DNA of 58,312 nucleotides, from positions 1-58,312 of the IMG/VR virus record IMGVR_UViG_3300042475_000814; one strand, written 5' to 3'. The position numbers were made by a program, and so were the translations under genes. Every line of letters starts with the position of its first letter. Positions within the stretch are counted from its first letter, which is position 1. This document shows, one piece after another, positions 7,061-58,312 of this stretch. The notes under the pieces are model-generated. The model was not told where the DNA came from. It did no database searches and was given only the letters and a program-made list of their open reading frames with translations. This DNA comes from a virus (lineage: Duplodnaviria; Caudoviricetes).

Positions 7061-7987
7061 ATGATAGACAAAAAGCCCGCCAATAAAATCAAGTTGAATA
7101 GAACACAAATAAGGGAAGGACTAAAGCAAATCCCTATAGAGTCCATCATTATGGGTGAGGGTAAGAAAAGAACACTCACAACAAAACAGAAAGGATTTAT
7201 TAAAGATGTCGCACTAGGTAAAACTAAAGCACAGGCATACAGGGATAACTATAACTCTAAGACTACTAAGAAACTACAAGGGGATGCTGGTTATAAGTTA
7301 TCCGCTAAACCCGTAATAAATGCTGAGATAGAGGCGTTTAAGTTGGCGCTAGAGGCACAAGCACATTATGAGGGTAGCAACCTTAAGGCGTTAATACTCC
7401 ATCAACTAACAATTCACGCCCTTAGTCCTGAGACACCGCCTGCTACTCGTGTGCGTGCGCTGGAATTGCTGGGTAAAAGTTACGATGTCGGACTGTTTGT
7501 AGAACGGAAGGAAATAACTACAATTAATAGTTCGATGGATGCAAAGAATAAACTCATGAAACAATTAAAAGATGCGCTCAGCAGGAACGCCATTACAATA
7601 GATTACAACATGACGGGTGAAAGTTTACTAGATGAAATCAAGGGAACGCCCACGGCTAACCAATCCGCAGAACCGCAGACGCACCGCACCCCCGCAAGCC
7701 AAAATGACCGCCATGACACGCCATCGGATACGCATAGTATTCCACACGCTAAATCACCACAAAATGACGCACAACCCATTGATTCCATTGAGGAAAAACC
7801 CCAAGTGGTAACGTTACCACATGACATAAACAACATTAAAGTTGATGCGCAAGTCATTGATTCTGAAGAAGAAAAAAAAGAAGAGGGGGAGGGGGTATTA
7901 AATGTTTGGGAGGAGTCTGAAGAGTCTATACAGGAAGACCCCCCCGTCAATGTTTGGAAAGAAAAGGGGGTGGGGGGTGGAAAATGA
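7061..7987 (+). CDS. terS: Terminase small subunit-like protein with long acidic, low-complexity C-terminus
   Basis: LTTKQKGFI...GKTKAQAYRDNY HTH pattern, RVRALELLGK, position upstream of TerL. Confidence 0.7.
   Translation: MIDKKPANKIKLNRTQIREGLKQIPIESIIMGEGKKRTLTTKQKGFIKDVALGKTKAQAYRDNYNSKTTKKLQGDAGYKLSAKPVINAEIEAFKLALEAQAHYEGSNLKALILHQLTIHALSPETPPATRVRALELLGKSYDVGLFVERKEITTINSSMDAKNKLMKQLKDALSRNAITIDYNMTGESLLDEIKGTPTANQSAEPQTHRTPASQNDRHDTPSDTHSIPHAKSPQNDAQPIDSIEEKPQVVTLPHDINNIKVDAQVIDSEEEKKEEGEGVLNVWEESEESIQEDPPVNVWKEKGVGGGK
7805..7820. repeat. Perfect 16-bp palindrome GTGGTAACGTTACCAC, copy 1
   Basis: Identical copies at 40692 and 54790. Confidence 0.95.
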
Positions 7988-8125
7988 AGAATTTAAGAGA
8001 AAGATGCGTTCTGTAGACGTAGACAAGGCTATAGAGTTGATGTTAGAGTTCCAACGCCGCTGGGAATTAGCGGGCGTGATCGCACGAGGATGGATAGCGA
8101 GTGCGCAGTCGAAGACGAGACAGAA

Positions 8126-8347
8126 ATGACACCACGACAGAAAGAAATCTATATGATTATTGATGAGTTCTGGAAGTCTTATGGATACGGCCCGTCAGTA
8201 GACGAAGTAATGTATATGGCAAATGTCAACGGTAGGGGCAACATCCATCGAATTATGAAGCGCCTTTGTGAGTTAGGTCATTGTAAGCGGATGCCAGATA
8301 AAGCACGGACTGTACGACCTTTAGGGATAGTGATGCGTAATTTATGA
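8126..8347 (+). CDS. LexA-like N-terminal winged-helix DNA-binding domain, no peptidase domain
   Basis: MTPRQKEIY...GYGPSVDEV...L.ELG...R...KARTV matches the LexA DBD pattern. Confidence 0.75.
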   Translation: MTPRQKEIYMIIDEFWKSYGYGPSVDEVMYMANVNGRGNIHRIMKRLCELGHCKRMPDKARTVRPLGIVMRNL

Positions 8348-9839: not shown

Positions 9840-12257
9840 ATGATTGAAAAAAGTTTATACGCAGCTCCTCTTGGGATAGAAGAAGAAATAATGCCCGATA
9901 TAGAGATAGAGATAGAAGATCCCGTAGGTTTAGAATCTTTAGAGATTGAGATTGATGTTGAAGACAGCTTTGATGATAATCTAGCCGAGGAAATAAGTGA
10001 GAAAGAATTAGTCCAAATAGCTGGCGACTTATTAGCCGACTACCAAGACGATATTGATGCTAGGAAGGACTGGATCCAGACCTACGTTGACGGGCTTGAG
10101 CTATTAGGTATGAAGATTGAAGAGAGAACAGACCCGTGGGAAGGTGCTTGTGGAGTCTATCATCCCCTTTTATCCGAGGCTTTAGTTAAGTTCCAAGCTG
10201 AAACTATTATGGAAACGTTTCCAGCAGCCGGACCAGTCAAGACCATGATTATCGGGAAAGAGACTCCCGAAAAGAAGGACGCTGCCATACGAGTTCAAGA
10301 GGATATGAACTACCAATTGACAGATGTAATGACAGAATACCGCCCTGAACATGAGCGAATGATTTGGGGACTAGGACTTTCTGGTAATGCATTTAAGAAA
10401 GTCTACTTTGATCCGTCTCTGAATCGGCAAGTGTCGATGTTTATTCCCGCGGAAGATATAGTCGTACCTTACGGGGCTTCTAGTCTAGAACAGTCTCCAC
10501 GAATAACCCACATTATGCGGAAAACCGAGAACGAGGTAAAGCGTTTACAGTTTGCCGGATTTTATCGGGACGTAGATTTGGGAGAGGCCAGCTCTTCATT
10601 AGACGAAGTAGAGAAGAAGATCGCAGAAAAGATGGGCTTTCGAGCTACCACAGATGACCGCTATAAACTTCTTGAAATGCACGTTTATCTCGACTTAGTA
10701 GGATATGAAGACGAAGAAGATGGCGAACCAACAGGCATAGCCTTACCATATGTAGTAACTATAGATAAGGATTCCGAAACTATTCTATCTATACGGCGTA
10801 ACTGGAGGCCAGAAGATGATACACATCAGAAGAGAAATCATTTTGTTCACTATGGTTATGTGCCGGGCTTTGGTTTCTACTGTTTTGGTCTTATCCATCT
10901 TGTTGGTGCTTTTGCCAAGTCTAGTACTTCCCTTATACGGCAACTGGTGGATGCAGGAACCTTATCTAACTTACCGGGCGGATTTAAAACCCGTGGATTG
11001 CGAATCAAAGGTGATGATACCCCGATAGCTCCGGGAGAATGGCGGGATGCGGATGTTCCAAGCGGTGCGCTCAAAGACAACTTAATGAGTCTACCGTATA
11101 AAGAACCAAGTCAGGTCTTATATAGTCTATTGGGAACTATTGTAGAAGAAGGCCGTAGATTTGCCTCGGCAGCGGATATGAAGATATCTGATATGTCAGC
11201 CAATTCCCCTGTTGGAACAACTTTAGCTATCTTAGAACGTACCCTTAAAGTAATGAGTGCGGTACAGTCTCGTATTCACTACTCGATGAAGCAGGAACTT
11301 AAGCTCCTCAAAGAGATAATCCGTGATTACACCCCTGAAGAATACGATTACGAACCTGAAGAAGGAAGTCCACGGGCTAAACAGTCAGATTATGACTTAG
11401 TTAACGTTATTCCAGTTAGCGATCCAAATGCTGCAACGATGGCACAGAAGATTGTGCAGTATCAGGCCGTTCTTCAGTTAGCACAGGGCGCACCACATAT
11501 TTACAATCTACCGCAATTACATAGGCAGATGTTAGATGTGCTGGGTATTCGAAATGCCCAAAAGTTAATCCCGATGCAAGAGGATAGAAAACCCAAAGAT
11601 CCTATTACTGAGAATATGGATGTACTTAATAGTAAGCCACTTAAGGCTTTCATCTATCAAGACCACGAAGCGCACATTACTGCCCATACAAACTTCCTAA
11701 AAGATCCGCTAACTGCAAAGGTTATTGGTCAGAACCCACAAGCACAGGTAATGACGGCAGGTTTACAGGCACATATAGCGGAACACTTTGGATTTAAGTA
11801 TCGCCAGTTAATAGAACAGCAGTTAGGCGCACCGTTACCGTATCTCAAAGAAGACGAAGATACAATTCCGGAAGAGTACGAAGTCCAGATTTCTAGACTG
11901 ATTGCTCAAGCCTCTATACAGTTACTCCAATTAAATCAATCACAGGCGGCGCAAGAACAAGCCCAACAGCAAGCCCAAGATCCAATTATTCAGATGCAAC
12001 AACAGGAACTTCAGATCAAGATGCAAGACGTTCAGCGCAAAGCCCAGAAAGATCAAGTGGATGCACAGCTTAAAGGTGAGCAGATACAGGTTGAGAGAGA
12101 ACGAATACAGTCTCAAGTCGATATAGAAGGGCAAAAAGCGGGTATTAAGATGTCTTACGACAAAGACAAATTAGACCGTGATAGTGAGATGCAAGCTACG
12201 CAAATGGGTATTGATATAGCAGCCGCTAGAGAACGCAACGCAGGGAATAGACAATGA
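9840..12257 (+). CDS. Portal protein
   Basis: 805 aa after TerL, Q-rich C-terminal barrel-type coiled coil. Confidence 0.85.
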   Translation: MIEKSLYAAPLGIEEEIMPDIEIEIEDPVGLESLEIEIDVEDSFDDNLAEEISEKELVQIAGDLLADYQDDIDARKDWIQTYVDGLELLGMKIEERTDPWEGACGVYHPLLSEALVKFQAETIMETFPAAGPVKTMIIGKETPEKKDAAIRVQEDMNYQLTDVMTEYRPEHERMIWGLGLSGNAFKKVYFDPSLNRQVSMFIPAEDIVVPYGASSLEQSPRITHIMRKTENEVKRLQFAGFYRDVDLGEASSSLDEVEKKIAEKMGFRATTDDRYKLLEMHVYLDLVGYEDEEDGEPTGIALPYVVTIDKDSETILSIRRNWRPEDDTHQKRNHFVHYGYVPGFGFYCFGLIHLVGAFAKSSTSLIRQLVDAGTLSNLPGGFKTRGLRIKGDDTPIAPGEWRDADVPSGALKDNLMSLPYKEPSQVLYSLLGTIVEEGRRFASAADMKISDMSANSPVGTTLAILERTLKVMSAVQSRIHYSMKQELKLLKEIIRDYTPEEYDYEPEEGSPRAKQSDYDLVNVIPVSDPNAATMAQKIVQYQAVLQLAQGAPHIYNLPQLHRQMLDVLGIRNAQKLIPMQEDRKPKDPITENMDVLNSKPLKAFIYQDHEAHITAHTNFLKDPLTAKVIGQNPQAQVMTAGLQAHIAEHFGFKYRQLIEQQLGAPLPYLKEDEDTIPEEYEVQISRLIAQASIQLLQLNQSQAAQEQAQQQAQDPIIQMQQQELQIKMQDVQRKAQKDQVDAQLKGEQIQVERERIQSQVDIEGQKAGIKMSYDKDKLDRDSEMQATQMGIDIAAARERNAGNRQ

Positions 12258-18597: not shown

Positions 18598-19383
18598 ATG
18601 AAACCTGTTAATGCTAAAGAAAACCCCGGACTTGCTAAGTTACCTACGGCCGTTCGTAACAAGATGGGCTATATGAAAAAGGGTGGATTAACAAAACCTA
18701 ACGGTTCTAAACGCATGAAAAAGTTTGATAATGGCGGATACACTGGCGATGATGAGATAGTTAAATACCGTATGGGCCAATTAAAAGATCCCGGAATTGA
18801 TCTATTTAAATTAGTAAGAGGCGAAGATCAAGTAGCTAAACCTGTCCAACTTGATAAAAAACCTGCTGAAATTAAAACAGAAACTAAAACTGTAACAACG
18901 CCAATAATAGAAGCTGGTGTTGAAGAAGAAACAAGTGTTAGAAGCAAACCTACAGCTCCACCTAAAAAACAAACTTTTGGCGAAGCGTTTAAAAGTGCAA
19001 GAGCTGGCGGTGGCAAGACATTTACTTTTAATGGAAAGTCTTACACTACAGAATTAGCCAAACCAAAAGCAAAAGAACCTGCATATAATGCAGCAGCGGC
19101 AGAAGAGTCATATGCCTCAAGTATGGAGAAATCAAATCCTGATTATCGTGCGGTAATGAAGAGACTAAACAGTCCTGAGTTTAAATTAGCAAAAAAATCT
19201 GGCGCAATACAAGGTACTCCTTTTGAAGATTTTGAAAGAGAAGACCGTATTATTAAAAATCAAAGAAGTTTAATGGGTAAGAAAAAAGGCGGCACAATTA
19301 AAAAGATGGCTAGCGGAGGGAGTGTTTCTAGTGCATCTAAAAGAGCCGACGGATGCGCAGTTCGTGGAAAGACAAGAGCCTAA
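18598..19383 (+). CDS. Basic modular protein with C-terminal SASKRADG tag (3)
   Basis: TFGEAFKSAR...FTFNGKSYTT module; ends MASGGSVSSASKRADGCAVRGKTRA. Confidence 0.8.
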   Translation: MKPVNAKENPGLAKLPTAVRNKMGYMKKGGLTKPNGSKRMKKFDNGGYTGDDEIVKYRMGQLKDPGIDLFKLVRGEDQVAKPVQLDKKPAEIKTETKTVTTPIIEAGVEEETSVRSKPTAPPKKQTFGEAFKSARAGGGKTFTFNGKSYTTELAKPKAKEPAYNAAAAEESYASSMEKSNPDYRAVMKRLNSPEFKLAKKSGAIQGTPFEDFEREDRIIKNQRSLMGKKKGGTIKKMASGGSVSSASKRADGCAVRGKTRA

Positions 19384-19385
19384 TT

Positions 19386-19667
19386 ATGTCAATAATGAAA
19401 ATGTTAAAAGATACTAGTGACAAAGTAAGTGAAGTTACTGACAAGTATAAATTAGCAAATCCTATAGAAGTAATTAACGAAGAGCTTGGCGGAGAAACCC
19501 GTGAAGAGTCTAAAGCCCGTAGAACAAAAGCAAAAGAACCCGTTAAAGAAATTGTTATAGAGAAAGAAACAATCATAAAACCTAGCAAATATAAAGCGGG
19601 TGGAAACGTTTCCAGCGCCTCTAAACGTGCTGACGGCTGTGCTATTCGTGGAAAGACCCGTGCATGA
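19386..19667 (+). CDS. Protein with C-terminal SASKRADG tag (4)
   Basis: ORF track 19353..19667, start moved; ends YKAGGNVSSASKRADGCAIRGKTRA. Confidence 0.75.
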   Translation: MSIMKMLKDTSDKVSEVTDKYKLANPIEVINEELGGETREESKARRTKAKEPVKEIVIEKETIIKPSKYKAGGNVSSASKRADGCAIRGKTRA

Positions 19668-38956: not shown

Positions 38957-41900
38957 ATGCCAATAGCAGAACTATTTGATGGAACAAGGCTAGAGTTTCC
39001 TGAAGATACAGATCCGTCTGTTATTGAGAAAACAGTTAAAAGATTAACTTTAGAACGCCAGCCAAAAAGAAAAGAAAGCTTACTTACTGATGTACAACGT
39101 GGTGCTGAGTCATTTGGATCTAGCGTTAGAGCTGGTATTAGCGGTATATTTGATCCTAATAAGGCGGCAGAAGAAGGCATTACACGGCAAGAAGATATCC
39201 AGCAAAGGCTAGGCGGAGATCAGTCTCGATTAAGTAAAGTTGAGGAGGCGTATAACAAAAAGGGATTACTATCTGCTGCCGGTACAGCACTAGGTGAAAT
39301 TCCGGGCGCAATAGCGGAACAGGTTCCAACACTTGCTACGGCGTTTGGTGGTGCTAGAGTAGGCGCTATGGCTGGTTCGCCTTTAGGTCCGTATGGTGCA
39401 ATTGGTGGCGGTATCGTTGGTACATTCCTACCATTCTTCTTTAGCGAATACGGTGGAAACATACAGCAACAAGCCCAGCTACAAAAAGAAAAGGGTGAGA
39501 AAGTAGACGTAAATGCAGGAAGGGCGGCAGGATTTGCTGTTCCTATGGCCGGTCTAGAAGTAGCAGAAAACTTTATTCCTTTTGGTAAAACTATAGTTGG
39601 CGGTATTTTTGGTAAAGAAGTCTCAGACTTACTAAAGAAGGGCGCTACAAAAGAAGCCGAGCAATTAGCAAAAGAAAAGCTGGCTAAAGAAACATTCCTT
39701 CCTAGTTTACAAAGTAGAGACTTTGGAACAATTGTAAAAGGCACAACAAGAACTGCATTAACAGAAATGCCAGTTGAGATAACTCAGCAAATGTTGGGCA
39801 GAGTACAGTCTGAACAAGACTTGTTTAGCCCAGAAGCTTTGCGTAATTATGGAGAAACGGCGTTTGATGTGGCTCTACTTGGACCTTTAGGTATCTATGG
39901 TAGGTCTGTTAATAAGTCTAAAGCACGAAGCGATATTCTTGAAGCACAAAGAGTTGCCGCCGAGAAGGGCGAATCTCAAGAAGTCCTATTATTAACTTAC
40001 GATCCTAATGTTGAAGGAACAGTTATTAATATTCCTATTCGGGTTAATCCAAATGGGTCTACTGCGTTTCCAAAACAAGAGAATCAATTTAGAGAAAATC
40101 CTGTAGATGAGTTTACAAATGCCGGATTAAAACAAGCATATCCATATCCAAGAACAAAAGAAGTAGAAGGATCTAGATATGCAAATCTTCCACCATCTAC
40201 CCCAACTAGACAGCAAGCAATTGTTCCACCAGTTTTTTACGGGACAGAGGCCGGTCAAGTTGGTCAGTCTGTAGATGATGTTAATCAAGCTCAGATATTT
40301 GAGCAGATTGCTCTTCAGAGACAAGAACAGTTATTGAGGACTGTCACTCCTGATACTTTAAAGGTATTGGGTATTGGTCCGTCCGCTCAAATATATAAGA
40401 ATCCTGCGGTTGTTGGTGCAGATTTAGGCGATCCTAATAAAGCTGCTGTAGTGCGTACAGAGTTATTAAATTTAAGAAATAAAAATAAAAACCCACAAAC
40501 ACAACAGAAAATAGACAAATTCTTAGAGCTTCCGTTCTTTCAAGTATTGCCACCAATTGAAATTACTAAAACACCAGCCGTACAGCCACAAAAGACGCTT
40601 GAATTACAGTCGCCACCCGTAATACAGCCCACGCCTGAAATAAAACCAACACCTATAATACAACCTGAAAAAGTTAAGGAAGAAGCCCCAAGTGGTAACG
40701 TTACCACTTTGCCAATTACCCCAATAGAATCAATAAGTTCCAGCGATAAAAAGCCTAATTTAGAGCCTATTTTAGACGAAATACAGGGCAAAAATGACCC
40801 TACTAAGGTGGATAAATTTGATACTCCATCAATAATTGAAGGGTTACAAACATTTGAAGTACCGGTTGCAGACCTATCGTTATCTAAGGATGTTCCACAA
40901 TTTAAATCGGGCGCATCTAAAGAAGGAGTTGTTGAAGCTCTAGGTGGTAAGTTTGATAGAACGGGCGTAGCACCTATTCAAGTATGGGAAAGATTGGGTG
41001 GCAACCTAGAAATTATCTCAGGAAGACACCGATTTGATTTAGCCAAGCGTAGTGGTGAGCAGACTATACCAGCACAGATTCATAGAGAGGCTGACGGGTT
41101 TAATGTTGAACAGGCAGCGTCATTAGATGCATTACTTAATATCCGTGAAGGACAAGGAAAGGTAAAAGATTATGTACAATTCTTCCAAAGACCGGGCTAC
41201 ACCAGAGAAGAAGCAGAGTCTAGCGGAGTTCTGGCAAGAGCGACAGGCAAAAGGGCGTTCTCCATCGCAACTAACGGAGTCAGTGACCTCGTTGCCTCGC
41301 ATCGTGCCGATCTCATCAGCGATGAAGCGGCCACTCAAATAGCGGAAACCGCACCACAAGATGCTGCATTGCAAAATCTAGGTATAAAGGCGGTGATGGA
41401 TGGTAAGTCTATTACTAACTCCATTAACCTAATGCAAGCAGTTAAGTCTATGACTGGTGATCGTGAATCCACAGGGGACTTGTTTGGGTTTGATGATTCT
41501 GCTATGCGTGAAGCGGAGCAAATGGCAGAGTATGCATCTAAGGTACAGCGTGATTTAGGGCAAAGATTAAGTGCAATAACTGGCGCAGCAAAGAGGCCGG
41601 AGATAGCACGGGCTGAAGGCATTGACGTTAAGGATGAGGCGGCAGTACAAAAACGCATAGAGGAGCTAAGACAAGCAAAGGCTAAATGGGATAGATGGTC
41701 TAGTTACTCTGAGTTAATTGCTGAGATTAGAGAAAACCTAAAGCTTGGTGTTAATAAACCTATTGAGCAAATTGCCCCTAAAGAAGAAGTTAAAACACAG
41801 GCTGAAATTAATCAAGAACGTCAAGCTGCTAAAAGAAAAAAAGCTCCTAAAAAAGATTTTGATTTAAAAGTTACAACTCCAGAAAGTTTAGAACAGGCCG

Positions 41901-44900: not shown

Positions 44901-46321
44901 GTGGCGTGTTTGAGTTAGGCGCTGCGCATGAAGGTGATCAGGCAGCCTTGATTAAAAGATTGATAAATAAAGGTACAAAAAAAGATACCATACTTACTGA
45001 TCCGTCTCAAATAAAGAATATCCTTGTTGATATGTACGAGCGTTATAACGAGTTTGGCAACAGGTTTGAAAACGCCAACCGTCTAGCCTTGTATCAGAAG
45101 ATGATTGATGAAGGTAAGACTCATTTAGAGGCATCATTTGCCGCGAGGGATCTATTAAACTTTACTGGCCAAGGATCTTTCCGTGCGGTTAAGCTTGTCT
45201 CTCAATTAGTGCCATTCTTTAATACTCGGTTACAAGGTCTATATAAGCTCGGTAGAGATGGGGTTACACCTACCTATCGTGTTCTATGTAATATGTCCAC
45301 AGGCAAGCCTATAGAAGAATCAGACAGGCTTAAAGCGCAAAGGTTCTCAATAGTATCTAGTGCGGTCATGCTGGCATCTATGGGCTTATACATGGCCTAT
45401 GAGGATGACGAAGACTTTAAGAAACGTGAAGATTGGGATCGTGATAATTTCTGGTGGTTTAAGGTTGGTGACACAGCATATCGTCTACCAAAACCGTTTG
45501 AAATAGGTGCGTTAGGTACGATAGCAGAGCGGTCATTAGAGCAAATCCGTGATGAAGATGTAGAGGGTAAAGTCTTTTACAATAGGATGAAAGCTATTAT
45601 TGTAGATACATTATCTTTAAATCCAACTCCTCAAGTTGTTAAGCCGTTGATTGATATTTACGCTAACAAAGATAGCTTTACAGGTGCGCCTATAGAGACT
45701 TCCGGTATGGAAAGACTTTCTAAACAGGAACGGTTTAGTAATAACACAAGTGAATTAGCCAAGGCGTTAGGCGGCATTTCTAGCGGAGCGTCTAAGATAT
45801 TAACCATGAATCCTGAAGCACAGGGCATTTCTCCTGTACAGATGGATTACGCAATCAAGACATACTTTGGCTGGTTAGGTTCTACTGTAGCGTCTGTATC
45901 TGACAAAGCGGTACAACCGTTTAGTGAGATAGAAAAACCCGGCAAGCCAGCGTTAGATCAGTATGCTCTTGGGTTTGCTAAAGAGTTACCAGAAGCGCAG
46001 TCTAAGTATGTAACTAACTTCTATGAGAATAGTAACCGGATCAACCAAGCATTTGCAGATATGAAGCGTTATGCAGAGCAGGGTGAGATGGAAAAGGTTG
46101 CTGAAATAATGGCAGAAAAGGGTAATTTAATTGCGCTAGAGAAGATATACAATCAAACAACAGATCAATTAGCGTCTTATAGAAGATATATAAATATGAT
46201 AACCAATAATAAAGAAATGTCAAAAGAGGATAAAGAGAATGAGATTATTCGCATGAAAGTCTTGATCTCACAGGCGGCAGAAAATGCCGAGAAAATAAGG
46301 AAGTCAATTAACCGACAATAG
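38957..46321 (+). CDS. Giant polyvalent virion protein (two ParB-like domains, HExxH peptidase-like, LPD38-like C-terminus)
   Basis: IISGRHRF (~41.0 kb), IAHELGH (~42.66 kb), HEGRHRMLAL (~43.4 kb), LPKPFEIG / NKDSFTGAPI. Confidence 0.75.
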   Translation: MPIAELFDGTRLEFPEDTDPSVIEKTVKRLTLERQPKRKESLLTDVQRGAESFGSSVRAGISGIFDPNKAAEEGITRQEDIQQRLGGDQSRLSKVEEAYNKKGLLSAAGTALGEIPGAIAEQVPTLATAFGGARVGAMAGSPLGPYGAIGGGIVGTFLPFFFSEYGGNIQQQAQLQKEKGEKVDVNAGRAAGFAVPMAGLEVAENFIPFGKTIVGGIFGKEVSDLLKKGATKEAEQLAKEKLAKETFLPSLQSRDFGTIVKGTTRTALTEMPVEITQQMLGRVQSEQDLFSPEALRNYGETAFDVALLGPLGIYGRSVNKSKARSDILEAQRVAAEKGESQEVLLLTYDPNVEGTVINIPIRVNPNGSTAFPKQENQFRENPVDEFTNAGLKQAYPYPRTKEVEGSRYANLPPSTPTRQQAIVPPVFYGTEAGQVGQSVDDVNQAQIFEQIALQRQEQLLRTVTPDTLKVLGIGPSAQIYKNPAVVGADLGDPNKAAVVRTELLNLRNKNKNPQTQQKIDKFLELPFFQVLPPIEITKTPAVQPQKTLELQSPPVIQPTPEIKPTPIIQPEKVKEEAPSGNVTTLPITPIESISSSDKKPNLEPILDEIQGKNDPTKVDKFDTPSIIEGLQTFEVPVADLSLSKDVPQFKSGASKEGVVEALGGKFDRTGVAPIQVWERLGGNLEIISGRHRFDLAKRSGEQTIPAQIHREADGFNVEQAASLDALLNIREGQGKVKDYVQFFQRPGYTREEAESSGVLARATGKRAFSIATNGVSDLVASHRADLISDEAATQIAETAPQDAALQNLGIKAVMDGKSITNSINLMQAVKSMTGDRESTGDLFGFDDSAMREAEQMAEYASKVQRDLGQRLSAITGAAKRPEIARAEGIDVKDEAAVQKRIEELRQAKAKWDRWSSYSELIAEIRENLKLGVNKPIEQIAPKEEVKTQAEINQERQAAKRKKAPKKDFDLKVTTPESLEQAEKEKKAQQDKEDKAKKEVEDKEKKDAEKKEVTARSEGAAKDFELGQDAEDNLSGQKGLDFAKGFMGEIVEPSDKKYSDGRIAYKNGDYGLLETIHPKGKVIYKPMYKGTLPMLQIEVDNDNGWIKKFIPPDMAKDLLAATKFLKQQAKDKHEKTPFIKYKNGIAVSSDVSKDLAGVIAGWKDMLGLTGNIYVTTFNDVKKNYNNFTGSDIAARRVMANVSKNDKGVAYEVGNGNFVVAFRELPSKNATFEIIAHELGHVHEKQVYANAPQAVKNALQAEHNKFLMGLKGKTGRNLIDALRARKMGKTTAGGENIQFENVERYWKSFAEWYADQTAKWATTQEKPLTVVERFFSRLGAALRQFYQKLRNQKYLPTETFKTYMDSVTKEVGNSNFNPETIEPISTKSQQSLFAKEEIKEKTKGVAGYTPERIDSIFNYYSVSGRPTTAKAYIAYINPMDFVNATTTKDMRKILDKEVTKLDPQKLAEEYQEIYLDIDLINGKAVIKQHEGRHRMLALANAGIEQVPVVINTRDWNPKAEVIDSLDIKGQKFSSISAYDKDGKPYPESGETLNVKNLIPISGEYKQYAKEAFSENDSTLQFALDSMDGVDLQYADKLRTRFGPTKKSTIKEKFAELKPNFFDRLITGLFDEFYAIKKYSQDAYMKAVLSKSVDGGLDGLLMQGQVYIKDGALDIRQGTKGLLEIMKPLGTDVERYQVWKALNRDAEVAKKYNAWKALAPKDRGKEPASPSFPAAEVARRNELLKGDIDGKPRGGLYRTALNEENALNRSVLDVAKQQGVIDQEAYNRFANDIYYIPFYKEMEDGNIVSVQDSSKLTGQYFSKALKGGEKERMGDLMENVLRNWSHILSASMKNAAANSTLLAAENLQAAVQVKSTYEGKNVITTMMNGKKAYFAVNDPDLVESISLISFLGPKSPFLDIAKGFTNALRFGVTLSPGYKIRNLFRDTIASAGISPVGLNVLDNVQRGLKLSDRGNPTFISALAGGGVFELGAAHEGDQAALIKRLINKGTKKDTILTDPSQIKNILVDMYERYNEFGNRFENANRLALYQKMIDEGKTHLEASFAARDLLNFTGQGSFRAVKLVSQLVPFFNTRLQGLYKLGRDGVTPTYRVLCNMSTGKPIEESDRLKAQRFSIVSSAVMLASMGLYMAYEDDEDFKKREDWDRDNFWWFKVGDTAYRLPKPFEIGALGTIAERSLEQIRDEDVEGKVFYNRMKAIIVDTLSLNPTPQVVKPLIDIYANKDSFTGAPIETSGMERLSKQERFSNNTSELAKALGGISSGASKILTMNPEAQGISPVQMDYAIKTYFGWLGSTVASVSDKAVQPFSEIEKPGKPALDQYALGFAKELPEAQSKYVTNFYENSNRINQAFADMKRYAEQGEMEKVAEIMAEKGNLIALEKIYNQTTDQLASYRRYINMITNNKEMSKEDKENEIIRMKVLISQAAENAEKIRKSINRQ
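40690..40709. repeat. Palindrome copy 2 (20-bp AAGTGGTAACGTTACCACTT)
   Basis: Direct reading; different codon phase from copies 1 and 3. Confidence 0.95.
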
Positions 46322-46591
46322 ATCGTTCTCAAACAGCCAACCTATAGTCTTCCGGTGGGATTCGTCCCACATTTCTACACGCTCTTGTTTAGACATTTTT
46401 GTACCCTGATCAAGCTCCATGTGGCAACCGTAGCATAGCGCTGCAATGCGATAATCGTGCGCTTTGATACCACGCCCTTTCCCGTCACGGAGCTGGTTAC
46501 TGTGCGCCGCTACTACTGTCCCATCCTGAGTCCCGCAGTATTGGCAAGGGGACTTCCTGACTATCTCTAATAACTTCTTGTTTCTGTACAT
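46304..46591 (-). CDS. DUF1364/YbcO-like His-Me finger nuclease
   Basis: CQYCG, AAHSN, GKGRGIKAHD, CYGCH..LD. Confidence 0.75.
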   Translation of the reverse strand: MYRNKKLLEIVRKSPCQYCGTQDGTVVAAHSNQLRDGKGRGIKAHDYRIAALCYGCHMELDQGTKMSKQERVEMWDESHRKTIGWLFENDLLSVN

Positions 46592-52224: not shown

Positions 52225-53096
52225 ACTTTCTCCTTTAAATAATCTTGATACTGTTTACAAAACTTATTAACTGGACAAAACGTGTCGCACCTTGTCCGCT
52301 CTCCCGCCCGTACTTCTACTTCATACCCTTTACCGAGTTCATCCATCTTTGCTTGTGCCTCCACTTCATCCGTGAAGACGTTTGTTGCTCGTTTATTCCC
52401 AATTTTCTTAACCGCATAAGAAGTCTGTTTTTCCCACATTTCGACAGATGTGCAGAGAACATAATCTTCCCCAGTCTCGGTGGCCAAATACGCATTGGAA
52501 TGTAGTCCAATCCTTTCTTTAATAAAACTCTCACGGGCTTCGTATGTCCACAGTGGTACATCAATAACCTTGACGGGGGCTTCAGGATAACCCTCCTTGT
52601 TTTGCGCATCCCTTCTACTCCAATCTCTGATTATGGCTATAATCTCAATCTTCTTTACAGGTGTCTTCTTTACACTTTCCACTAGCCAAGCGTAAATATT
52701 TAACTGTTGTTCCCATTCAATCTTTTCATTCATTACCGCCCATGCACCGGTAGTCTTGTAGTCAGAGACAATAATTCCATCCTCTTCGACTCGCTGCAAA
52801 TCAATTGCGCCCGAAATATTCCAGCCATCTACCTCTGCGTGTAGCCTTTGCTCAATGATATGGTTATCATCCTTGCCAAGTTCTAATATAGAGTGGATAG
52901 CCGTGCCGAATATAGCCCATATCCTGTCCGTTACATCCTCCTCTAGATTCTCCCAATGAGTTTTCCTCAGTTGAGCAATCTGTGGTGGCATCAGTAATTC
53001 AGTAGCAGATAAGTGTGCCTTACCCTTTGAATAAGTCGGTCTTTCCAAAACATTGACGAATGTCTGTGGCAAGTTAAACTTGTTAGTTAGTTTCAT
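52221..53096 (-). CDS. PD-(D/E)XK exonuclease (recombination partner of ERF)
   Basis: GTAIH, SGAID, DYKT, QLNIY, C-terminal Cys cluster; GGAGG SD before MKLTN. Confidence 0.85.
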   Translation of the reverse strand: MKLTNKFNLPQTFVNVLERPTYSKGKAHLSATELLMPPQIAQLRKTHWENLEEDVTDRIWAIFGTAIHSILELGKDDNHIIEQRLHAEVDGWNISGAIDLQRVEEDGIIVSDYKTTGAWAVMNEKIEWEQQLNIYAWLVESVKKTPVKKIEIIAIIRDWSRRDAQNKEGYPEAPVKVIDVPLWTYEARESFIKERIGLHSNAYLATETGEDYVLCTSVEMWEKQTSYAVKKIGNKRATNVFTDEVEAQAKMDELGKGYEVEVRAGERTRCDTFCPVNKFCKQYQDYLKEKV

Positions 53097-53128
53097 TAAT
53101 CCTCCATGTTGTACTACAATCCAACTAC

Positions 53129-53157
53129 AGAATAGCAAATCTATTTTTAAATGTCAA
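53129..53157 (-). promoter_or_regulatory. Sigma70 promoter of the recombination operon
   Basis: TTGACA-17 bp-TATTCT with extended -10 TG. Confidence 0.75.
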
Positions 53158-53200
53158 CAGGTTGTACCCATATATTTTCATGTGTTGCAAAGGAACAAAA

Positions 53201-53518
53201 ATGGCCGGTGTTTCCCCTACCCAGCGCAGTCTAAAGATTATGCGAGAGCGTGGTTATCATTGTGAGATAGTAGAAAAATGGAATAGTTTTGTAAAAATAC
53301 GACAAGACCTCTTCGGATTCATTGATGTTCTATGCCTTGGCCAGAACGAGATTATTGGTGTTCAGACCACGACTAGCGCACATATGGCCGAGCGGATTCA
53401 TAAAATTAAAGATCACGCAAACTATCAGGCGGTAGTAGATTCGGGCATCAAGATACTTGTGCATGGCTGGGTAAAACGCACGAATGGAAGGTGGGAATGT
53501 CGTGAAGAATTGATATAA
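53201..53518 (+). CDS. Small PD-(D/E)XK-type nuclease (Holliday junction resolvase-like)
   Basis: SPTQRSL..RERGY, DLFGFIDVL, GVQTT, VHGW. Confidence 0.65.
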   Translation: MAGVSPTQRSLKIMRERGYHCEIVEKWNSFVKIRQDLFGFIDVLCLGQNEIIGVQTTTSAHMAERIHKIKDHANYQAVVDSGIKILVHGWVKRTNGRWECREELI

Positions 53519-53539
53519 TTGATTGGTGAGAAGTGATTT

Positions 53540-53568
53540 AGGGGGCTGAAATATGTCCCCTTTTTTTT
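53540..53568 (+). terminator. Intrinsic terminator
   Basis: AGGGGGC-tgaaatat-GTCCCCT followed by T run. Confidence 0.75.
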
Positions 53569-53604
53569 GTCTATAGACGCTAAATGAGACAATATGATAC
53601 TATA

Positions 53605-53680
53605 TGTCAACAGTTCTATCTGTTAGCACTCCTCCGTGCGAACCCTAATGCCCTAGACTAATCCACTAGGGCATTTTCTC
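53605..53680 (+). ncRNA. Candidate ~70-nt sRNA with anti-SD loop
   Basis: Hairpin GTTAGCAC-TCCTCC-GTGCGAAC, then terminator-like AATGCCCTAG/CTAGGGCATT. Confidence 0.45.
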
Positions 53681-53726
53681 TGTTAGCCTAACACTTCCTT
53701 ACAGCAAGCTAACACTTCATTAACAC

Positions 53727-53755
53727 TAGCAATCTTTTAAAAGTTATGTTATAGT
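53727..53755 (+). promoter_or_regulatory. Promoter of structured leader RNA
   Basis: TAGCAA-17 bp-TATAGT with extended -10 TG. Confidence 0.6.
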
Positions 53756-53761
53756 TTAACT

Positions 53762-53886
53762 ATTGCGACCTGAGAACCGCTAAGAGTCCCTTGATAGGTA
53801 TATTGATAGGGCGTTTTACTAAGTTACTGATAGTGCTTACCTAAACGTCCTAGTTCTCAGCAATATATCTTTTAAGGGATTTTTTT
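53762..53886 (+). ncRNA. Leader RNA/attenuator with c4/CI-type architecture
   Basis: 5' loop CTGAGAAC complementary to bulged GTTCTCAG in a long terminator-like hairpin ending in a T run. Confidence 0.55.
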
Positions 53887-54217
53887 ATTGGTCGTAATCG
53901 CAGAACGGCGATACAGATGGTTATTCCCAGCTACCTTACATGGGAACTTGCTAATGACCGAGCAAGTAAATGAAACAGGTTGCGCTTGTAGTGTATACAC
54001 GGGGCGGCGCAGTGGAACTTAAATGGGTATCCACACGAACAGAACATGATAAAGGTGATGCGAAGCTAGTTTGGCCGACTAGAGTTGACAGGCGTTCTGG
54101 AAGATAAACATTACCTCAGGGAGCAGTGGGAGCAATCCGGCTGAAGGTGGTTAAAGACTATGTTGAGTTACAAGGCATATCACCATCTCGCCCCGTGGTT
54201 AACACCGTTTATCTACA
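53887..54217 (+). ncRNA. Candidate large multi-branched structured RNA or ssDNA element
   Basis: Long-range CACGGGGCG/CGCCCCGTG helix plus at least 8 internal or adjacent stems, GCAA tetraloop; no ORF of 60 aa or more. Confidence 0.55.
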
Positions 54218-54220
54218 GAG

Positions 54221-54264
54221 ATGACAAAGTATAGATTCATGTGCTATAATAAGTGTGGTATAAT
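54221..54264 (+). promoter_or_regulatory. Tandem extended -10 promoters for the replication operon
   Basis: ATGACA-18 bp-TGCTATAAT and a second TGGTATAAT 14 bp downstream. Confidence 0.7.
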
Positions 54265-54297
54265 AACAGTGGATTCTGTTTAACGGAGAGAGAGAAT

Positions 54298-55083
54298 ATG
54301 AAGATAGAAGATATAGTAATTGACGCTAAGACGCAGATGCGTGAAATCAGCGAAGACGTAGTAACTGACTACACTGAGAAGCTATTAGATGGAGTTAAAT
54401 TCCCGCCCGTGGAAGTGTTTACAGACGGGAAAATCACTTGGTTAGTGGACGGGTTTCAAAGACTGTTAGCGCACCAACGGGCAAAGTTAGCACACATTGA
54501 AGCAGTCACTCATAAAGGAACGCTACGAGACGCTCAGTTTTATGCGTTAGGAGTAAATGATAAGCACGGCAAGCCTAGAACGATTAAGGATAAAACAAAT
54601 GCGGTATTAACCGCCTTAGAAGATATGGAATGGGGGCTATTAAGCAATAGAGAAATAGCCAAGGCGTGTAATGTATCCCATGTATTTGTGGCAAAAGTTA
54701 AGAAATCCTTAGAAAAACCATCAAAAAAGAAGCCAAAAAAGGCACAAAAAAAGCCCGCAACGCTCGTAGTTAAAGGCTCTGAGTCTGAAGTGGTAACGTT
54801 ACCACTTGAGTATGATCCTAGGGAAGATCAGATTACTGAACTGTCTACAACCAATCGGCAATTATCAGAAGAGAATACTAAGTTAAAGGATAAAGACTTA
54901 GTTGTTAACGAAGATAAGGCGGTGGTGCTGGACGAAATTACCGGTTTGCGTAATCAGATTAAAGGGCTGGAGGCAGAGTTAAAGGCGGTTAAAAACTCCC
55001 GTGATCAGTTCCAAAATAAGAATCTAGAGTTAATAAAACAGGTAAAATATTTAGAGAATAAGATTAAGAAGTCCGGATTGTAA
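54298..55083 (+). CDS. ParB-like protein (ParB/Srx N-domain, HTH, C-terminal coiled coil)
   Basis: FPPVEVF...LVDGFQRLLAH, SNREIAKACNVSHVFVAKV, heptad C-terminus. Confidence 0.8.
   Translation: MKIEDIVIDAKTQMREISEDVVTDYTEKLLDGVKFPPVEVFTDGKITWLVDGFQRLLAHQRAKLAHIEAVTHKGTLRDAQFYALGVNDKHGKPRTIKDKTNAVLTALEDMEWGLLSNREIAKACNVSHVFVAKVKKSLEKPSKKKPKKAQKKPATLVVKGSESEVVTLPLEYDPREDQITELSTTNRQLSEENTKLKDKDLVVNEDKAVVLDEITGLRNQIKGLEAELKAVKNSRDQFQNKNLELIKQVKYLENKIKKSGL
54788..54807. repeat. Palindrome copy 3 (20-bp AAGTGGTAACGTTACCACTT) inside the ParB-like gene
   Basis: Direct reading. Confidence 0.95.
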
Positions 55084-55123
55084 TACCGAAGTTGGGCGGT
55101 TTCCCATCAGGAACGGAGAGAGT

Positions 55124-56602
55124 ATGTTGCAGTTGCGAGAGCATCAGTTGGAAGTTGTTGAGAAGTTAATAGAGGGATTTAAAGAACACCGTTGTCAAAT
55201 ACTATATGCTCCTACCGGATTCGGTAAGACAGAAGTGGCGATGGCTATGATGTTAGAAGTATCTAAGCAGTTTAAAAAGACCGCTATGATACTTGATAGG
55301 GTTGTTCTCGTTGAGCAAACCAGTCTACGCCTAGGTAAGTATCAAATCCCGCACGGGGTTATGCAAGCAAATCATTGGCGTAAACAACCACATGAACGGA
55401 TACAAGTCTGTTCTGCCCAAACCTTAGAAAAGCGCAAGATTATTCCTGAAATGGAATTATTAATCGTGGATGAATGTCATGTCCGGCGCAAAGGAACGCT
55501 AGAGTTAATAAAGAATAACCCCAACCTAAAAGTTATAGGGCTTACTGCTACGCCTTTTACCGATGGGCTAGGGGATACATATACCAATGTGGTCGGTGCG
55601 TCCCCTACTTCTGAGTTAATACAAAAGGGCTGGCTAACTCCTTTGAAAGTCTATATTGCAAAAGAAATAGACATGACGGGCGCAAAGAAGAACTCGTTCG
55701 GTGAGTGGGCGGAAAGCGAAACCACAAGCCGAGGCATGAAGATTACAGGGGATATTATTACCGAGTGGGTTAAATTGACCTACGCAATATATGGTGGCCC
55801 CGCTAAGACTATAGTGTTCTGTTCGGGGGTTAAGCACGGCAAAGACTTAGAGGCCAAGTTTAATGAGGCGGGGTATAACTTTAAGTCTATATCTTATCGA
55901 GAGGATGACGAATACAAACGGATAACTATTGAAGACTTTGCCCGCCCTGATACAGACATTGTTGGTCTTATTGCCACAGACATTCTAACCCGTGGGTTTG
56001 ATGTAAGTGATGTAATGATAGGTGTATCTGCCCGCCCTTTTAGTAAGTCGTTCTCTAGCCATGTTCAGCAGATGGGTAGGGTTATGCGCCCGCATGAGGG
56101 TAAGGATTGGGCATATTGGCTAGATCATTCCGGTAATTATTTAAGATTCCGTAAAGAGTGGGATGAGTTATATGATGAAGGGGTTAAGGAGTTAAAAGAC
56201 GGAGCAGAGTCTACCAAAAAAGAGCCAACAGAAAAGGAAAAGAAACAATCCATATGCCCTGCTTGTAAAGGATTATGGACTTCAAGCACAGATATTTGTA
56301 ACGAATGTGGACATGTCCGTCAGTCTAAAGTAATGTTTGAATCCGTGGCTGGAGAGTTAGTCGAGTTGGACGGGGTTAGTAGACAGGCAGATACAAATGC
56401 ATCACAGTTTTACGCAGAGGTGCTTTACTATGCAAGACTACAAGGATACAAGGATGGTTGGGCAGCATACAAATATAAAGAGAAGTTCGGCATCTTCCCG
56501 TCCAGATATCTAAGTAGCATTGCGCCACAACCACCTAGTAATAAAACATTAGGTTGGATTAAATCACGCAACATAGCATATGCAAAGGCTAGACAACAAT
56601 GA
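55124..56602 (+). CDS. SF2 (DExH) helicase with C-terminal Zn finger
   Basis: PTGFGKT, DECH, TATP, QQMGRVMR, CPAC/CNECG. Confidence 0.9.
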   Translation: MLQLREHQLEVVEKLIEGFKEHRCQILYAPTGFGKTEVAMAMMLEVSKQFKKTAMILDRVVLVEQTSLRLGKYQIPHGVMQANHWRKQPHERIQVCSAQTLEKRKIIPEMELLIVDECHVRRKGTLELIKNNPNLKVIGLTATPFTDGLGDTYTNVVGASPTSELIQKGWLTPLKVYIAKEIDMTGAKKNSFGEWAESETTSRGMKITGDIITEWVKLTYAIYGGPAKTIVFCSGVKHGKDLEAKFNEAGYNFKSISYREDDEYKRITIEDFARPDTDIVGLIATDILTRGFDVSDVMIGVSARPFSKSFSSHVQQMGRVMRPHEGKDWAYWLDHSGNYLRFRKEWDELYDEGVKELKDGAESTKKEPTEKEKKQSICPACKGLWTSSTDICNECGHVRQSKVMFESVAGELVELDGVSRQADTNASQFYAEVLYYARLQGYKDGWAAYKYKEKFGIFPSRYLSSIAPQPPSNKTLGWIKSRNIAYAKARQQ

Positions 56603-57369
56603 CATTCGAATCGTTTGCAAAAAAGCACGGGCTTATTATTGAAGATGTTGTAATGGATAAGTGGATGCGTGTCCCAACTCAGGACAAGCCAAACAAACGT
56701 AATGGTGCATACATATGGGATGGTAGGAATGGTGCGATCATTAACTTTGCCAAGCATGAGAATCACATAATCTATAAAGATGATGTGACTAGGTATGACC
56801 CGTTTATCCAAGAGAAGATAAGAAAATCAGAAAAAGATAAACTCGATAAACAACTCAAGGCCAAGAGGAAAGCGGTCTTTATTGTGACTAGTGCGGTGCA
56901 AGCAGAACATCCGTATTTAGAGAAAAAGGGTTTCAGTAAAGGGCTTGTATGGAATAGCCTTTTAGTCGTCCCGATGCGGATTGATGGAGACTTAGTGGGT
57001 TGCCAACTCATCACGCCTGACGGGGATAAGAAGTTTCTAACAGGGCAATTAACCAAGGGCGCATCTCTCACGATAGACAATAAGGGTAGGGATATACTCG
57101 TAGAGGGATTGGCAACGGGCTTGAGTGTCCGCCAAGTCCTCAAAGAACATAACAAGAGATATACAATTCACATTTGTTTTTCTGCATCTAATATGCTGGA
57201 GATAGCCAAGGGCAAGCATAACCCGCTAGTCATCGCAGACCATGATGAGATAGGAATAAAAACTGCCCAAAAAATCGGGCAGTATTGGCTAAGTGATACA
57301 GAGGGAGAAGACTTCAATGATGCGCACCAGCGTGGATACATAGGCAATATTATTGAACTGTTGGAGTGA
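56599..57369 (+). CDS. TOPRIM primase-like protein
   Basis: HPYLEKKG, LVVPM, EGLATGLS, ADHD, DFND. Confidence 0.85.
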   Translation: MTFESFAKKHGLIIEDVVMDKWMRVPTQDKPNKRNGAYIWDGRNGAIINFAKHENHIIYKDDVTRYDPFIQEKIRKSEKDKLDKQLKAKRKAVFIVTSAVQAEHPYLEKKGFSKGLVWNSLLVVPMRIDGDLVGCQLITPDGDKKFLTGQLTKGASLTIDNKGRDILVEGLATGLSVRQVLKEHNKRYTIHICFSASNMLEIAKGKHNPLVIADHDEIGIKTAQKIGQYWLSDTEGEDFNDAHQRGYIGNIIELLE

Positions 57370-57541
57370 GAGGCTGGCTTGCTATAGCACCTCCCTCCGA
57401 GTAATAAACATCTTCCATGAACAAGGCGGTTTGTATGATTCTATGTGCGAGTGCGTGTGCTTTACCATCTGCACCTAAAGACTCTGCCGTGATGCTAATG
57501 TTATCACCTTGATCTTGCAAGTAGATTATAGTTAATCCCAC
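57350..57541 (-). CDS. Hypothetical protein
   Basis: ORF track. Confidence 0.55.
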   Translation of the reverse strand: MGLTIIYLQDQGDNISITAESLGADGKAHALAHRIIQTALFMEDVYYSEGGAIASQPLTPTVQ

Positions 57542-57828
57542 AGAACTCCTTTCAGGTATTTCCTACCTTTTTCGGTAATTCTACACCTTTTCTCCCGTGT
57601 ATCTGAGGGCTTTTCTATGATGGTGATTAGGTTAGCATCCTTTAGTGATATTAGGGCTTTGTGGAGTGTTGCTTGCCCGCCTATGCCCATGTCCCTACCC
57701 TGTTTAATAATCTGCATAACAGTCGCGCGCCATTCCTCTACTTCGAGATAAACGATATCAAGTAGTATCTCCGCTTGCTGGCTTATCCCCATTTTCTTCC
57801 TGTGCGTAAAGTGTTTTATAGGATTCAT
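57532..57828 (-). CDS. MarR-like winged-helix protein
   Basis: ATLHKALISL.DANLI....DTREK...ITEKGRKY. Confidence 0.7.
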   Translation of the reverse strand: MNPIKHFTHRKKMGISQQAEILLDIVYLEVEEWRATVMQIIKQGRDMGIGGQATLHKALISLKDANLITIIEKPSDTREKRCRITEKGRKYLKGVLWD

Positions 57829-58124
57829 GCAATAACCCCGCTTGCACCTTCAATGTAGTTTTGTTTCTTAACATCGAAAAAACTAAATGTTTCCCATGTT
57901 TTTCCATCTTCAGACGGGTCGATTACCATTTCATAACTTCGTGTATTAATCCAAAAATTATGATGTTTGCGTTCTTTCTCTTCCGCACCTGATTTATCTA
58001 ACATATCGCTAATTGCGCCATCTGTTCCATCATTAATAATAATCCAATACTCTTGCTCAAGATTAAAGATTAATGTAATGGTTACACGATTGGTAAGCCT
58101 TACATGATGTATTGTTGCTTTCAT
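57825..58124 (-). CDS. Hypothetical protein
   Basis: ORF track. Confidence 0.6.
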   Translation of the reverse strand: MKATIHHVRLTNRVTITLIFNLEQEYWIIINDGTDGAISDMLDKSGAEEKERKHHNFWINTRSYEMVIDPSEDGKTWETFSFFDVKKQNYIEGASGVIA

Positions 58125-58297
58125 ACTTCCTCCTTAATATCTAAATCATATTTTTCTTGTAACTGCTCATCGCTATAACTGTTAAATCCACCATCAGCAA
58201 AAAATTCTGTTACATCCTTAATATAGGGATGCCCATTATTTATAAACCATTCAAGTTCATATTTTGTAAGTGCGTAAATTAATTCTTGCCTGTTCAT
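58121..58297 (-). CDS. Small acidic protein (58 aa)
   Basis: Manual translation MNRQELIYALTKYELEWF...KEEV. Confidence 0.6.
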   Translation of the reverse strand: MNRQELIYALTKYELEWFINNGHPYIKDVTEFFADGGFNSYSDEQLQEKYDLDIKEEV

Positions 58298-58312
58298 ACT
58301 TCCCCCCTAATT

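Follow-up and report, generated by a model that had tools for sequence, protein, structure and literature searches.

The 58,312-base virus record IMGVR_UViG_3300042475_000814 (Caudoviricetes), analysed here in full and referred to as the window, carries five copies of a palindromic DNA element, TGGWAACGTTWCCA, one of which lies inside the gene for a 261-amino-acid (aa) ParB-like protein. Comparison of the sites and of the gene across related phages leads us to propose, with a probability of roughly 0.6, that an orphan ParB-family dimer has the five palindromes as its cognate sites and would act in the manner of KorB or Noc and not in partition. Because the window is the whole virus record, the copies counted are every copy in the record. 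Related records from the viral collection are labelled Gnnn and individual loci Lnnn, with the window itself being G000. The elements on which the argument rests, including the helix-turn-helix (HTH) of the protein and one further open reading frame (ORF), are as follows.

7805..7820, no strand: site 1, GTGGTAACGTTACCAC, at codon 249 of the 308 of terS, within its variable 3' tail and 539 bp upstream of terL.
10209..10224, no strand: site 2, variant ATGGAAACGTTTCCAG, in the portal gene, frame METFP.
19600..19615, no strand: site 3, variant GTGGAAACGTTTCCAG, in ORF 19353-19667, frame GGNVSS.
40690..40709, no strand: site 4, 20-bp palindrome AAGTGGTAACGTTACCACTT, in the gene for a 2454-aa virion protein (codon 578), frame SGNVTT.
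54298..55083, + strand: gene for the ParB-like protein, 261 aa, recognised by PHROG 1033, by profile comparison with the PDB, and by an AlphaFold (AF2) model and Foldseek.
54679..54711, + strand: stretch encoding the predicted recognition helix of the HTH, H128-V129-F-V-A-K-V-K-K (helix 128-138 in the model), preceded by V126-S127.
54788..54807, no strand: site 5, 20-bp palindrome AAGTGGTAACGTTACCACTT, in the part of the ParB-like gene that encodes a disordered linker, frame EVVTLPL.

A scan of the whole window places the 16-mer GTGGTAACGTTACCAC exactly at 7805-7820, 40692-40707 and 54790-54805, and detects no further match at up to two mismatches. The mean number of copies in shuffled sequence is 0.01, and none of 100 dinucleotide-preserving shuffles reaches three. 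Copies 2 and 3 extend to the 20-bp palindrome AAGTGGTAACGTTACCACTT, whereas copies 1 and 2 have the 21 bases CCCAAGTGGTAACGTTACCAC in common. The three copies are translated as QVVTLPH (terS), SGNVTT (2454-aa protein) and EVVTLPL (ParB-like protein), and the palindromes are, with support, selected as DNA and not as peptide. A first-pass annotation of the window had described the three exact copies, both extensions and the reading of the site as VVTLP in two genes and GNVTT in the third, and each of these descriptions holds. The exact and degenerate scan of the genome that it suggested adds two sites to its three, in which a symmetric T-to-A swap gives TGGAAACGTTTCCA, at 10210 and 19601. All five TGGWAACGTTWCCA sites fall within coding regions (0/5 intergenic) and account for five of the window's seven AACGTT hexamers. 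Avoidance of a host restriction site was considered as the origin of the AACGTT core and rejected; such avoidance is not general, because only 3 of the 26 AACGTT hexamers of G048 fall within sites. In size and symmetry the sites fit a palindrome of about 16 bp read by a dimer, and it is covariation that points to binding.

Relatives of the ParB-like protein are frequent in the viral collection, with 48 close relatives and 104 loci detected by profile, and TerL has more than 599 relatives. The nearest named and cultured relatives, judged by TerL at 53-56% identity, are the Pelagibacter phages HTVC027P and HTVC023P, which places the group among abundant aquatic phages. The closest relative, G001, has a ParB-like protein that is 87% identical and flanking DNA that is 78-87% identical, and keeps all three orthologous sites. 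Its portal site is unchanged, and its sites in terS and in the ParB-like linker, 11 kb apart, are both TGGCAACGTTGCCA, having undergone the same double symmetric change of T to C and A to G. The portal site is also unchanged at the same place in G065, where site 3 is kept at matching distance, and G044 contains a like site, TGGAAACGTTTCCA with flanks GTGG..CCAG, approximately 2 kb past its terS sites.

The same two places recur further afield, as the ParB-like linker and the 3' end of terS carry the same palindrome within a lineage and different palindromes between lineages: GTGGCACTAGTGCCAC in G024, G025 and G034, TGGAATTATTACCA in G027, and TGGTAACGTT[A/T]CCA in G044, G045 and G046. In G003, CTGCAAACGTTTGCAG is located 575 bp before the ParB-like gene and again at terS. 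The first-pass annotation had proposed looking in related phages for a palindrome in the same linker, and such a linker site, of lineage-specific sequence, is found in G001, G024, G025, G034, G027, G044, G045, G046, L224, L236, L239 and G049/G053; in L214, L245 and L276 the site lies about 200 bp before the gene, and altogether at least 10 lineages have a site in or beside it. Upstream of terL, at a distance of 150-1000 bp, 26 of 55 loci have a perfect palindrome of at least 14 bp, compared to 3 of 55 for an equal stretch inside terL, and some lineages carry two copies 27-71 bp apart at the terS 3' end. Sites of the local type also occur in the first fifth of the giant ORF of G035 (codon 416) and G039 (codon 493). 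In the main clade, sites are mostly intergenic (4/6 in G039, 4/5 in G018 and 3/3 in G048), with one found right after a terminator-like hairpin, a placement that favours transcription control over partition or packaging without settling the matter. A sigma-70 scan around main-clade sites returned 17 promoter-like sequences against 15.7 expected, with 0 on the three sites.

Whether such sites accompany the gene can be seen from a scan of the viral collection with the pattern GTGGYAACGTTRCCAC, which covers symmetrically flanked sites and leaves asymmetrically flanked ones, such as those of G001, outside. At least 121 loci were found; 80 were read and, against a 1:1 chance expectation, comprise 72 symmetric and 8 mixed sites (binomial 5e-14). 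Among the matches listed, a member of the ParB-like family is encoded in 9 of 23 longer records, and the seven records that are at least 90% complete contain 6, 7, 3 and 4 sites where the gene is present and 1, 1 and 1 where it is not, which gives multi-copy sites in 4/4 complete genomes with the gene versus 0/3 without it. Each of the complete records scanned uses one variant only. These observations support the reading of the sites by a lineage-specific factor encoded by the phage, and the ParB-like protein, on the evidence of covariation and co-occurrence, is the best candidate for that reader.

The protein comprises a ParB/Srx-type N-domain (approximately aa 1-95), an HTH with helices at 117-124 and 128-138, a lysine-rich disordered linker (142-173) and a coiled coil of two long helices (174-259), and its start at the ATG at 54298 is consistent with the starts in relatives. 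It matches the PHROG 1033 'ParB-like partition protein' family (1.1e-18). No Pfam ParB match was obtained for it at E 0.01, although Pfam ParB_N is matched by 8 of 22 aligned family members (best 3.2e-5), and for NCBIfam ParB models none is listed for it and none is past cut-off; one relative matches NCBIfam nucleoid_noc at 7.6e-5 (22 bits versus a cut-off of 315), and one family member has a weak Pfam LacI-HTH match (0.0057). Compared with the PDB, the family profile detects ParB (4e-6), sulfiredoxin (6.6e-6) and Spo0J (2.2e-4) over the N-domain and HTH, with the match to Spo0J 1vz0 covering profile positions 8-138. The AF2 model has a pLDDT of 77, with residues 1-138 as its folded part, and its top Foldseek matches are ParB, Noc, KorB and Spo0J; with ParB, Noc, KorB and Srx the match has a probability of 1.0, and the approximately 124-150 alignment columns span the N-domain and HTH. 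The ParB/Srx-type N-terminal fold is thus found by both profile and structure, and the HTH directly follows it, as in Spo0J, by profile, structural alignment and model. Together, profiles and models provide strong evidence for a predicted ParB fold despite the absent Pfam match. Q13, R15 and N87 are invariant in the family alignment.

Residues 170-261 were modelled as a parallel, in-register homodimer with a score of 0.57, compared to 0.11 for the best control; of proteins solved as same-chain pairs, 20 of 30 reach this mark, and of those solved as single chains, 1 of 23. The homodimer runs share at least 95% of their contacts, which are in register, and give the partner a pLDDT of 84 or more. 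Because coiled coils resemble many solved dimers, this score may reflect likeness and is not proof.

If the ParB-like protein reads the sites, changes in its recognition helix would be expected to accompany changes in the palindrome, as the first-pass annotation had suggested. V126 and S127 are nearly invariant in the family, whereas in 12 of 13 lineages the identity of residue 129, a V in the window, goes with that of base pair 4/11 in the 14-bp site. S-H-x helices in which x is V or P go with T:A in six lineages (G000; G027; G044/45; G046/52/70; G048; L239), and those in which x is T go with C:G in another six (G001; L224; L236; L214 group; G049/53; G051). Fisher's exact test gives 0.0047 for this match with lineages, as grouped by us, taken as independent. 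From G000 to G001/G006, the helix changes from VSHVFVAKVKK to VSHTFVANIKK where the site goes from T:A to C:G, and in both sister pairs, G000/G001 and L324/L236, helix residue and site switch together. More broadly, all S-H helices go with sites that start TGG, and the large clade with the helix VSSMTVGRVRK has ATTAACA-N-TGTTAAT instead, in 3-6 exact copies per record.

Under the proposed mechanism, the ParB-like protein would dimerise through its C-terminal parallel coiled coil, and each of the two HTH units would read one half-site, TGGWAAC. Specificity would drift between phage lineages as the recognition helix and all of a genome's sites change together, each matching the other. Binding at its own gene could autoregulate the block of ParB-like protein, helicase and primase genes that it heads, and binding at the terS-terL junction and a few other places could time transcription or mark DNA for packaging, such that the overall role would be genome-wide control or organisation of the phage DNA.

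Several observations weigh against the proposed reading of the palindromes by an orphan ParB-family dimer. Three or more perfect copies of one dyad are found in only 9 of 36 gene-bearing records, many of which are fragments, and shuffles give up to 1-4. The complete 73.6-kb relative G011 contains nine copies of CTAACA-WW-TGTTAG within 10 kb (49.3-58.8 kb; loci L190-L193), six of them intergenic, and no ParB-like protein was detected in it by profile search, so dispersed dyads are possible in the group without the gene. The canonical nucleotide-binding motif of ParB is GERRxRA. At its position the window's protein reads G-F-Q-R-L-L-A, and the family GFHR, with R55 alone kept of the three arginines, and this degenerate CTP motif weakens the clamp part of the model; loading as a CTPase clamp, in the sense of the first-pass annotation, is not supported. 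Passages of a survey report that the ParB fold can bind CTP, ATP or GTP (PMC12704722). With regard to the helix, G047 is an exception in having an S-H-T helix with a T:A site at terS, and G055 (S-D-V) and G061 (S-R-Q) also go with the C:G site, so that any helix-site code is many-to-one. Shared descent explains part of the match, because helix and site lie within 150 bp of one gene. On a tree built without the helix columns there are two well-supported independent pairs (five on the best tree); both are concordant, and with only two the test is underpowered and significance is out of reach. The suggested covariation is therefore upheld as a pattern in 12 of 13 lineages and not as a significant result once kinship is taken into account. 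Lastly, one main-clade 'site', at the ParB-like start + 2587, falls on a conserved peptide of the primase, FNNVK, and could be a coincidence of coding.

The first-pass annotation had named as reader either the ParB-like protein or ParB-like domains in the giant virion protein, and the two halves of that statement fare differently. Fold, modelled dimer, the places of the sites, co-occurrence and the 12 of 13 lineages agree with the former. For the latter, the whole 2454-aa protein has no Pfam ParB domain at E 0.01, whereas a 227-aa piece of it gives ParB_N at E 0.0083 and 16.6 bits, under the cut-off of 26.3, approximately 85 residues past site 4, which itself lies in a proline-rich stretch ahead of this weak segment. 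The claim that site 4 sits just upstream of a first ParB-like domain is thus weakly borne out, as a segment is there and is below cut-off. No HTH was found with the segment, and the profile of the family N-domain detects nothing under E 2.6 across the window except the gene at 54298-55083.

The surroundings of the gene speak against partition as the likeliest role. It heads the block with helicase and primase in the window, and comes first in the helicase-primase block in 33 of 33 records where both were located. No ParA was detected among the 101 ORFs of the window scanned with PHROGs, AAA_31 gave no match in the record with the control positive in 14/14 genomes, and no integrase was found in scans of the record. 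A partition ATPase and a protelomerase likewise did not turn up in the window scans made. The LG(R/K)GL motif, described as ParA-binding in passages of PMC12704722, is absent from the ParB-like sequence. The relative G001 (22 kb) is collinear across the window ends (window 1-444 and 52243-58312), so that nothing is hidden at its ends and the record represents an essentially complete genome in circularly permuted form. The earlier remark that neither ParA nor integrase is visible therefore stands for the whole genome. The gene set is of the lytic type and includes an Erf-type annealing protein and an exonuclease. Given no ParA, integrase or plasmid-type replication gene, partition is not the most likely role.

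We classify the system as one of the ParB/parS kind that is not a canonical member of ParABS, since several defining features of that family were looked for and are absent. Similar to chromosomal ParB (Spo0J) and parS, it combines a 16-bp palindrome with a central ACGT and an N-domain plus HTH fold, and parS is known inside the parB gene itself. It differs from Spo0J/parS in having no ParA, no LG(R/K)GL, no GERRxRA, no ParB C-terminal domain and another half-site. Similar to Noc, which is among the top Foldseek matches, it would involve a ParB paralogue that no longer partitions and dispersed palindromes. However, Noc, a host protein, carries a canonical CTP motif and targets the membrane through a helix, and neither feature is seen in the phage protein. 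In passages on a Pseudomonas parS variant, a double symmetric transition, T5C-A12G, is described (PMC5450999); its positions and changes are the same as those of GTGGTAACGTTACCAC versus GTGGCAACGTTGCCAC here.

For KorB and its operator OB on RK2, the relevant parts of PMC11790492 describe a ParB-fold HTH protein that acts on dispersed palindromes, some far from promoters, and exerts control at a distance. The phage system resembles it in having several dispersed copies of one site (five in the window, and three to seven in complete gene-bearing relatives) and in the Foldseek match. KorB comes with ParA (IncC), KorA, a canonical CTP motif and a plasmid replicon, unlike the phage protein with no ParA, a degenerate motif, a coiled-coil C-terminus and a phage with lytic-type genes. 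Dispersed centromere-like sites are mentioned in sections of PMC3235114 for N15 (SopB; citing Ravin and Lane 1999), RK2 and pSM19035, and N15 is likewise a phage genome with several such sites spread out; unlike the window, for which the scans made gave no partition ATPase, integrase or protelomerase, it is kept as a plasmid with SopA. The stoperators of Cluster A mycobacteriophages, of which portions of PMC6550527 describe 20-30 dispersed sites, mostly away from promoters, with a consensus that varies with the repressor, differ in being asymmetric 13-mers oriented with transcription and read by an immunity repressor in temperate phages, where we see three to seven palindromes and a ParB fold. 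What sets the phage system apart from all of these is the combination of no ParA, a degenerate motif, a coiled-coil C-terminus and a site kept in the disordered linker of its own gene. Our literature search, in which supplements were not covered, found no published description of it, and none naming both HTVC023P and ParB.

An extended form of the proposal is rather unlikely when its parts are taken jointly. In it, the orphan ParB would load at three to seven lineage-specific palindromes and spread or slide from them as a private ParB/parS-like form of addressing, which times replication, late transcription and packaging in a phage of the lytic type. By analogy with immunity specificities, fast co-evolution of helix and site would give each lineage its own 'address', and lineages without the DNA-binding half (G007, and perhaps L066 and L067) would borrow the host ParB through a parS at terS. 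ParB-fold proteins without ParA are described as common in phages, with targets and roles largely unknown, in parts of the survey PMC12704722. The family described here offers a defined 14-16-bp site, one candidate specificity residue (V129 versus T) and conserved positions, natural 'mutants' at residue 129 exist in sister phages, and there are hundreds of environmental relatives. With such a handle, both the recognition code of a ParB-type HTH and the role of an orphan ParB in lytic infection become directly testable.

Of the other explanations, the one that survives best, though we judge it unlikely, is that the ParB-like protein is a replication initiator and the palindromes are origins at which helicase and primase are recruited. 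The position of the gene at the head of the helicase-primase block in all 33 records agrees with this, and the site in the interdomain linker can be likened to the origin of lambda, which lies inside the gene of its own initiator, O. In G007 (77% complete), the ParB-like N-domain and HTH are gone and a 111-aa coiled-coil ORF is kept right before the helicase (E 1.7e-20), which also fits an initiator and hints that the coiled coil works with replication proteins; a search for a ParB-like HTH in G007, G009 and G011 found none. However, the five to seven sites per genome are single and scattered, and no iteron array accompanies them. In the main clade they mostly occupy short intergenic gaps, one of them right behind a terminator-like hairpin, a placement that looks more like transcription control, and the best-conserved second place is terS and not the replication module.

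We regard as quite unlikely that the palindromes are read by another protein, either a small protein that resembles the LexA DNA-binding domain or a host regulator of the LacI/GalR type. The former is encoded close to site 1.

8090-8347, + strand: LexA-type winged-helix protein, 85 aa, without the LexA C-terminal domain, recognised by Pfam LexA_DNA_bind; overlaps the start of terL.

Its match to LexA_DNA_bind is at 2.5e-8 (34 bits versus a cut-off of 23.7) and that to TIGR00498 at 1.7e-8, LexA-type domains bind 16-bp palindromes, and the ORF, which begins approximately 270 bp after site 1 and lies between terS and terL, recurs in 53 of 67 related regions before terL. The dispersed dyads of G011, found where no ParB-like gene is, would also suit another reader. 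Against the 85-aa protein, its predicted helix GRGNIHRIMKRL stays the same between G000 and G001/G006 though the site differs; it is also unchanged between L124 and L140, whose cores are AACGTT and AATATT, and among L104, L105 and L109, which have unrelated palindromes or none. The site has a TG..CG..CA look, which we take to be that of LacI-family operators, and the first-pass annotation had raised this alternative. It is unlikely, because no LacI-type gene was found in the window, and a host factor would not account for the uniformity of one variant per genome or for a variant that tracks a residue of the phage protein.

Very doubtful is a role as a pac signal read by TerS, in which the copy in terS would start headful packaging and the others serve as secondary or synapsis sites. 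The pac sites of many phages are located inside terS, a site does lie in or beside terS here, and the terS 3' end or the stretch just after it is the family's most conserved place for a palindrome, with the closely spaced pairs of some lineages as a further point in favour. Specificity, however, does not follow the DNA-binding domain of TerS. The TerS HTH helix TKAQAYR is identical in G000, G001 and G006 though the site differs, the site TGGTAACGTTACCA is shared by TerS proteins that are only 48-56% identical, the 72%-identical TerS proteins of L124 and L140 carry different sites, and TerS pairs that are 81-87% identical (L104/L109 and L110/L111) differ in having a palindrome at all. A pac role also leaves unexplained the conserved linker copy and the limitation of multi-copy sites to gene-bearing genomes.

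Highly improbable is an origin without any protein reader, as RNA or DNA hairpins or cruciforms, whose stems would keep symmetric double changes and of which the AGGGGGTACCCCCT class with its T run in relatives, resembling a terminator, could be an instance, or through gene conversion between short repeats, which the Erf-type annealing protein and exonuclease could drive by short-homology exchange: a purely structural element is argued against because the sites, folded as single-stranded DNA, give weak hairpins (-2.8 to -6 kcal/mol) and mixed half-sites, TGGTAACGTTTCCA in G027, G044 and G045, break the stem and keep two acceptable half-sites, and in addition a stem requires neither identical sequence everywhere nor self-complementarity through the loop, and Rfam gave no match in the window.

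Some remaining features of the window concern the giant virion protein and its neighbour.

38957-46321, + strand: ORF of the giant virion protein, 2454 aa, with an LPD38 domain at aa 2151-2324 (3.6e-42).
40940-41100, + strand: sub-threshold ParB_N-like stretch within this ORF, containing ...IISGRHRFDLAKR...
46304-46591, - strand: HNH endonuclease gene (PHROG 131, 9.8e-26), encoded opposite the giant virion protein gene, whose end it overlaps.

An LPD38 domain in a 2454-aa protein is typical of large polyvalent proteins.

At the terS 3' end of two loci, L066:1696-1713 and L067:4485-4500, we observed TGTTTCACGTGAAACA, a sequence that is called the canonical chromosomal parS in passages of PMC5450999. 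In G007 (L062), TGTTTCAtgTGAAACA, which is TGTTTCACGTGAAACA with one central change, is located approximately 660 bp before terL. All three of these phages may use the host ParB.

Two further sequences were considered as sites in relatives and set aside. As a shorter main-clade site, TGGCCGGCCA was dropped; its recurrent copy, ATGTGGCCGGCCAGCT (with the core GGCCGGCC), occupies one conserved coding place approximately 5.4 kb after the ParB-like start in eight records (G017-G019, G035, G039-G041 and G043) and probably recurs as a conserved peptide. The AGGGGGTACCCCCT palindromes near terS were rejected as protein sites, being followed by a T run that gives them the look of an intrinsic terminator. 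They are found near the terS end in one TerS lineage (L170:16770-16783 in G035, and L096, L098, L104, L018, L035, L038 and L041), and go with the type of TerS and not with that of the ParB-like protein, as they are present in G035 and absent from G039, which has the same helix.

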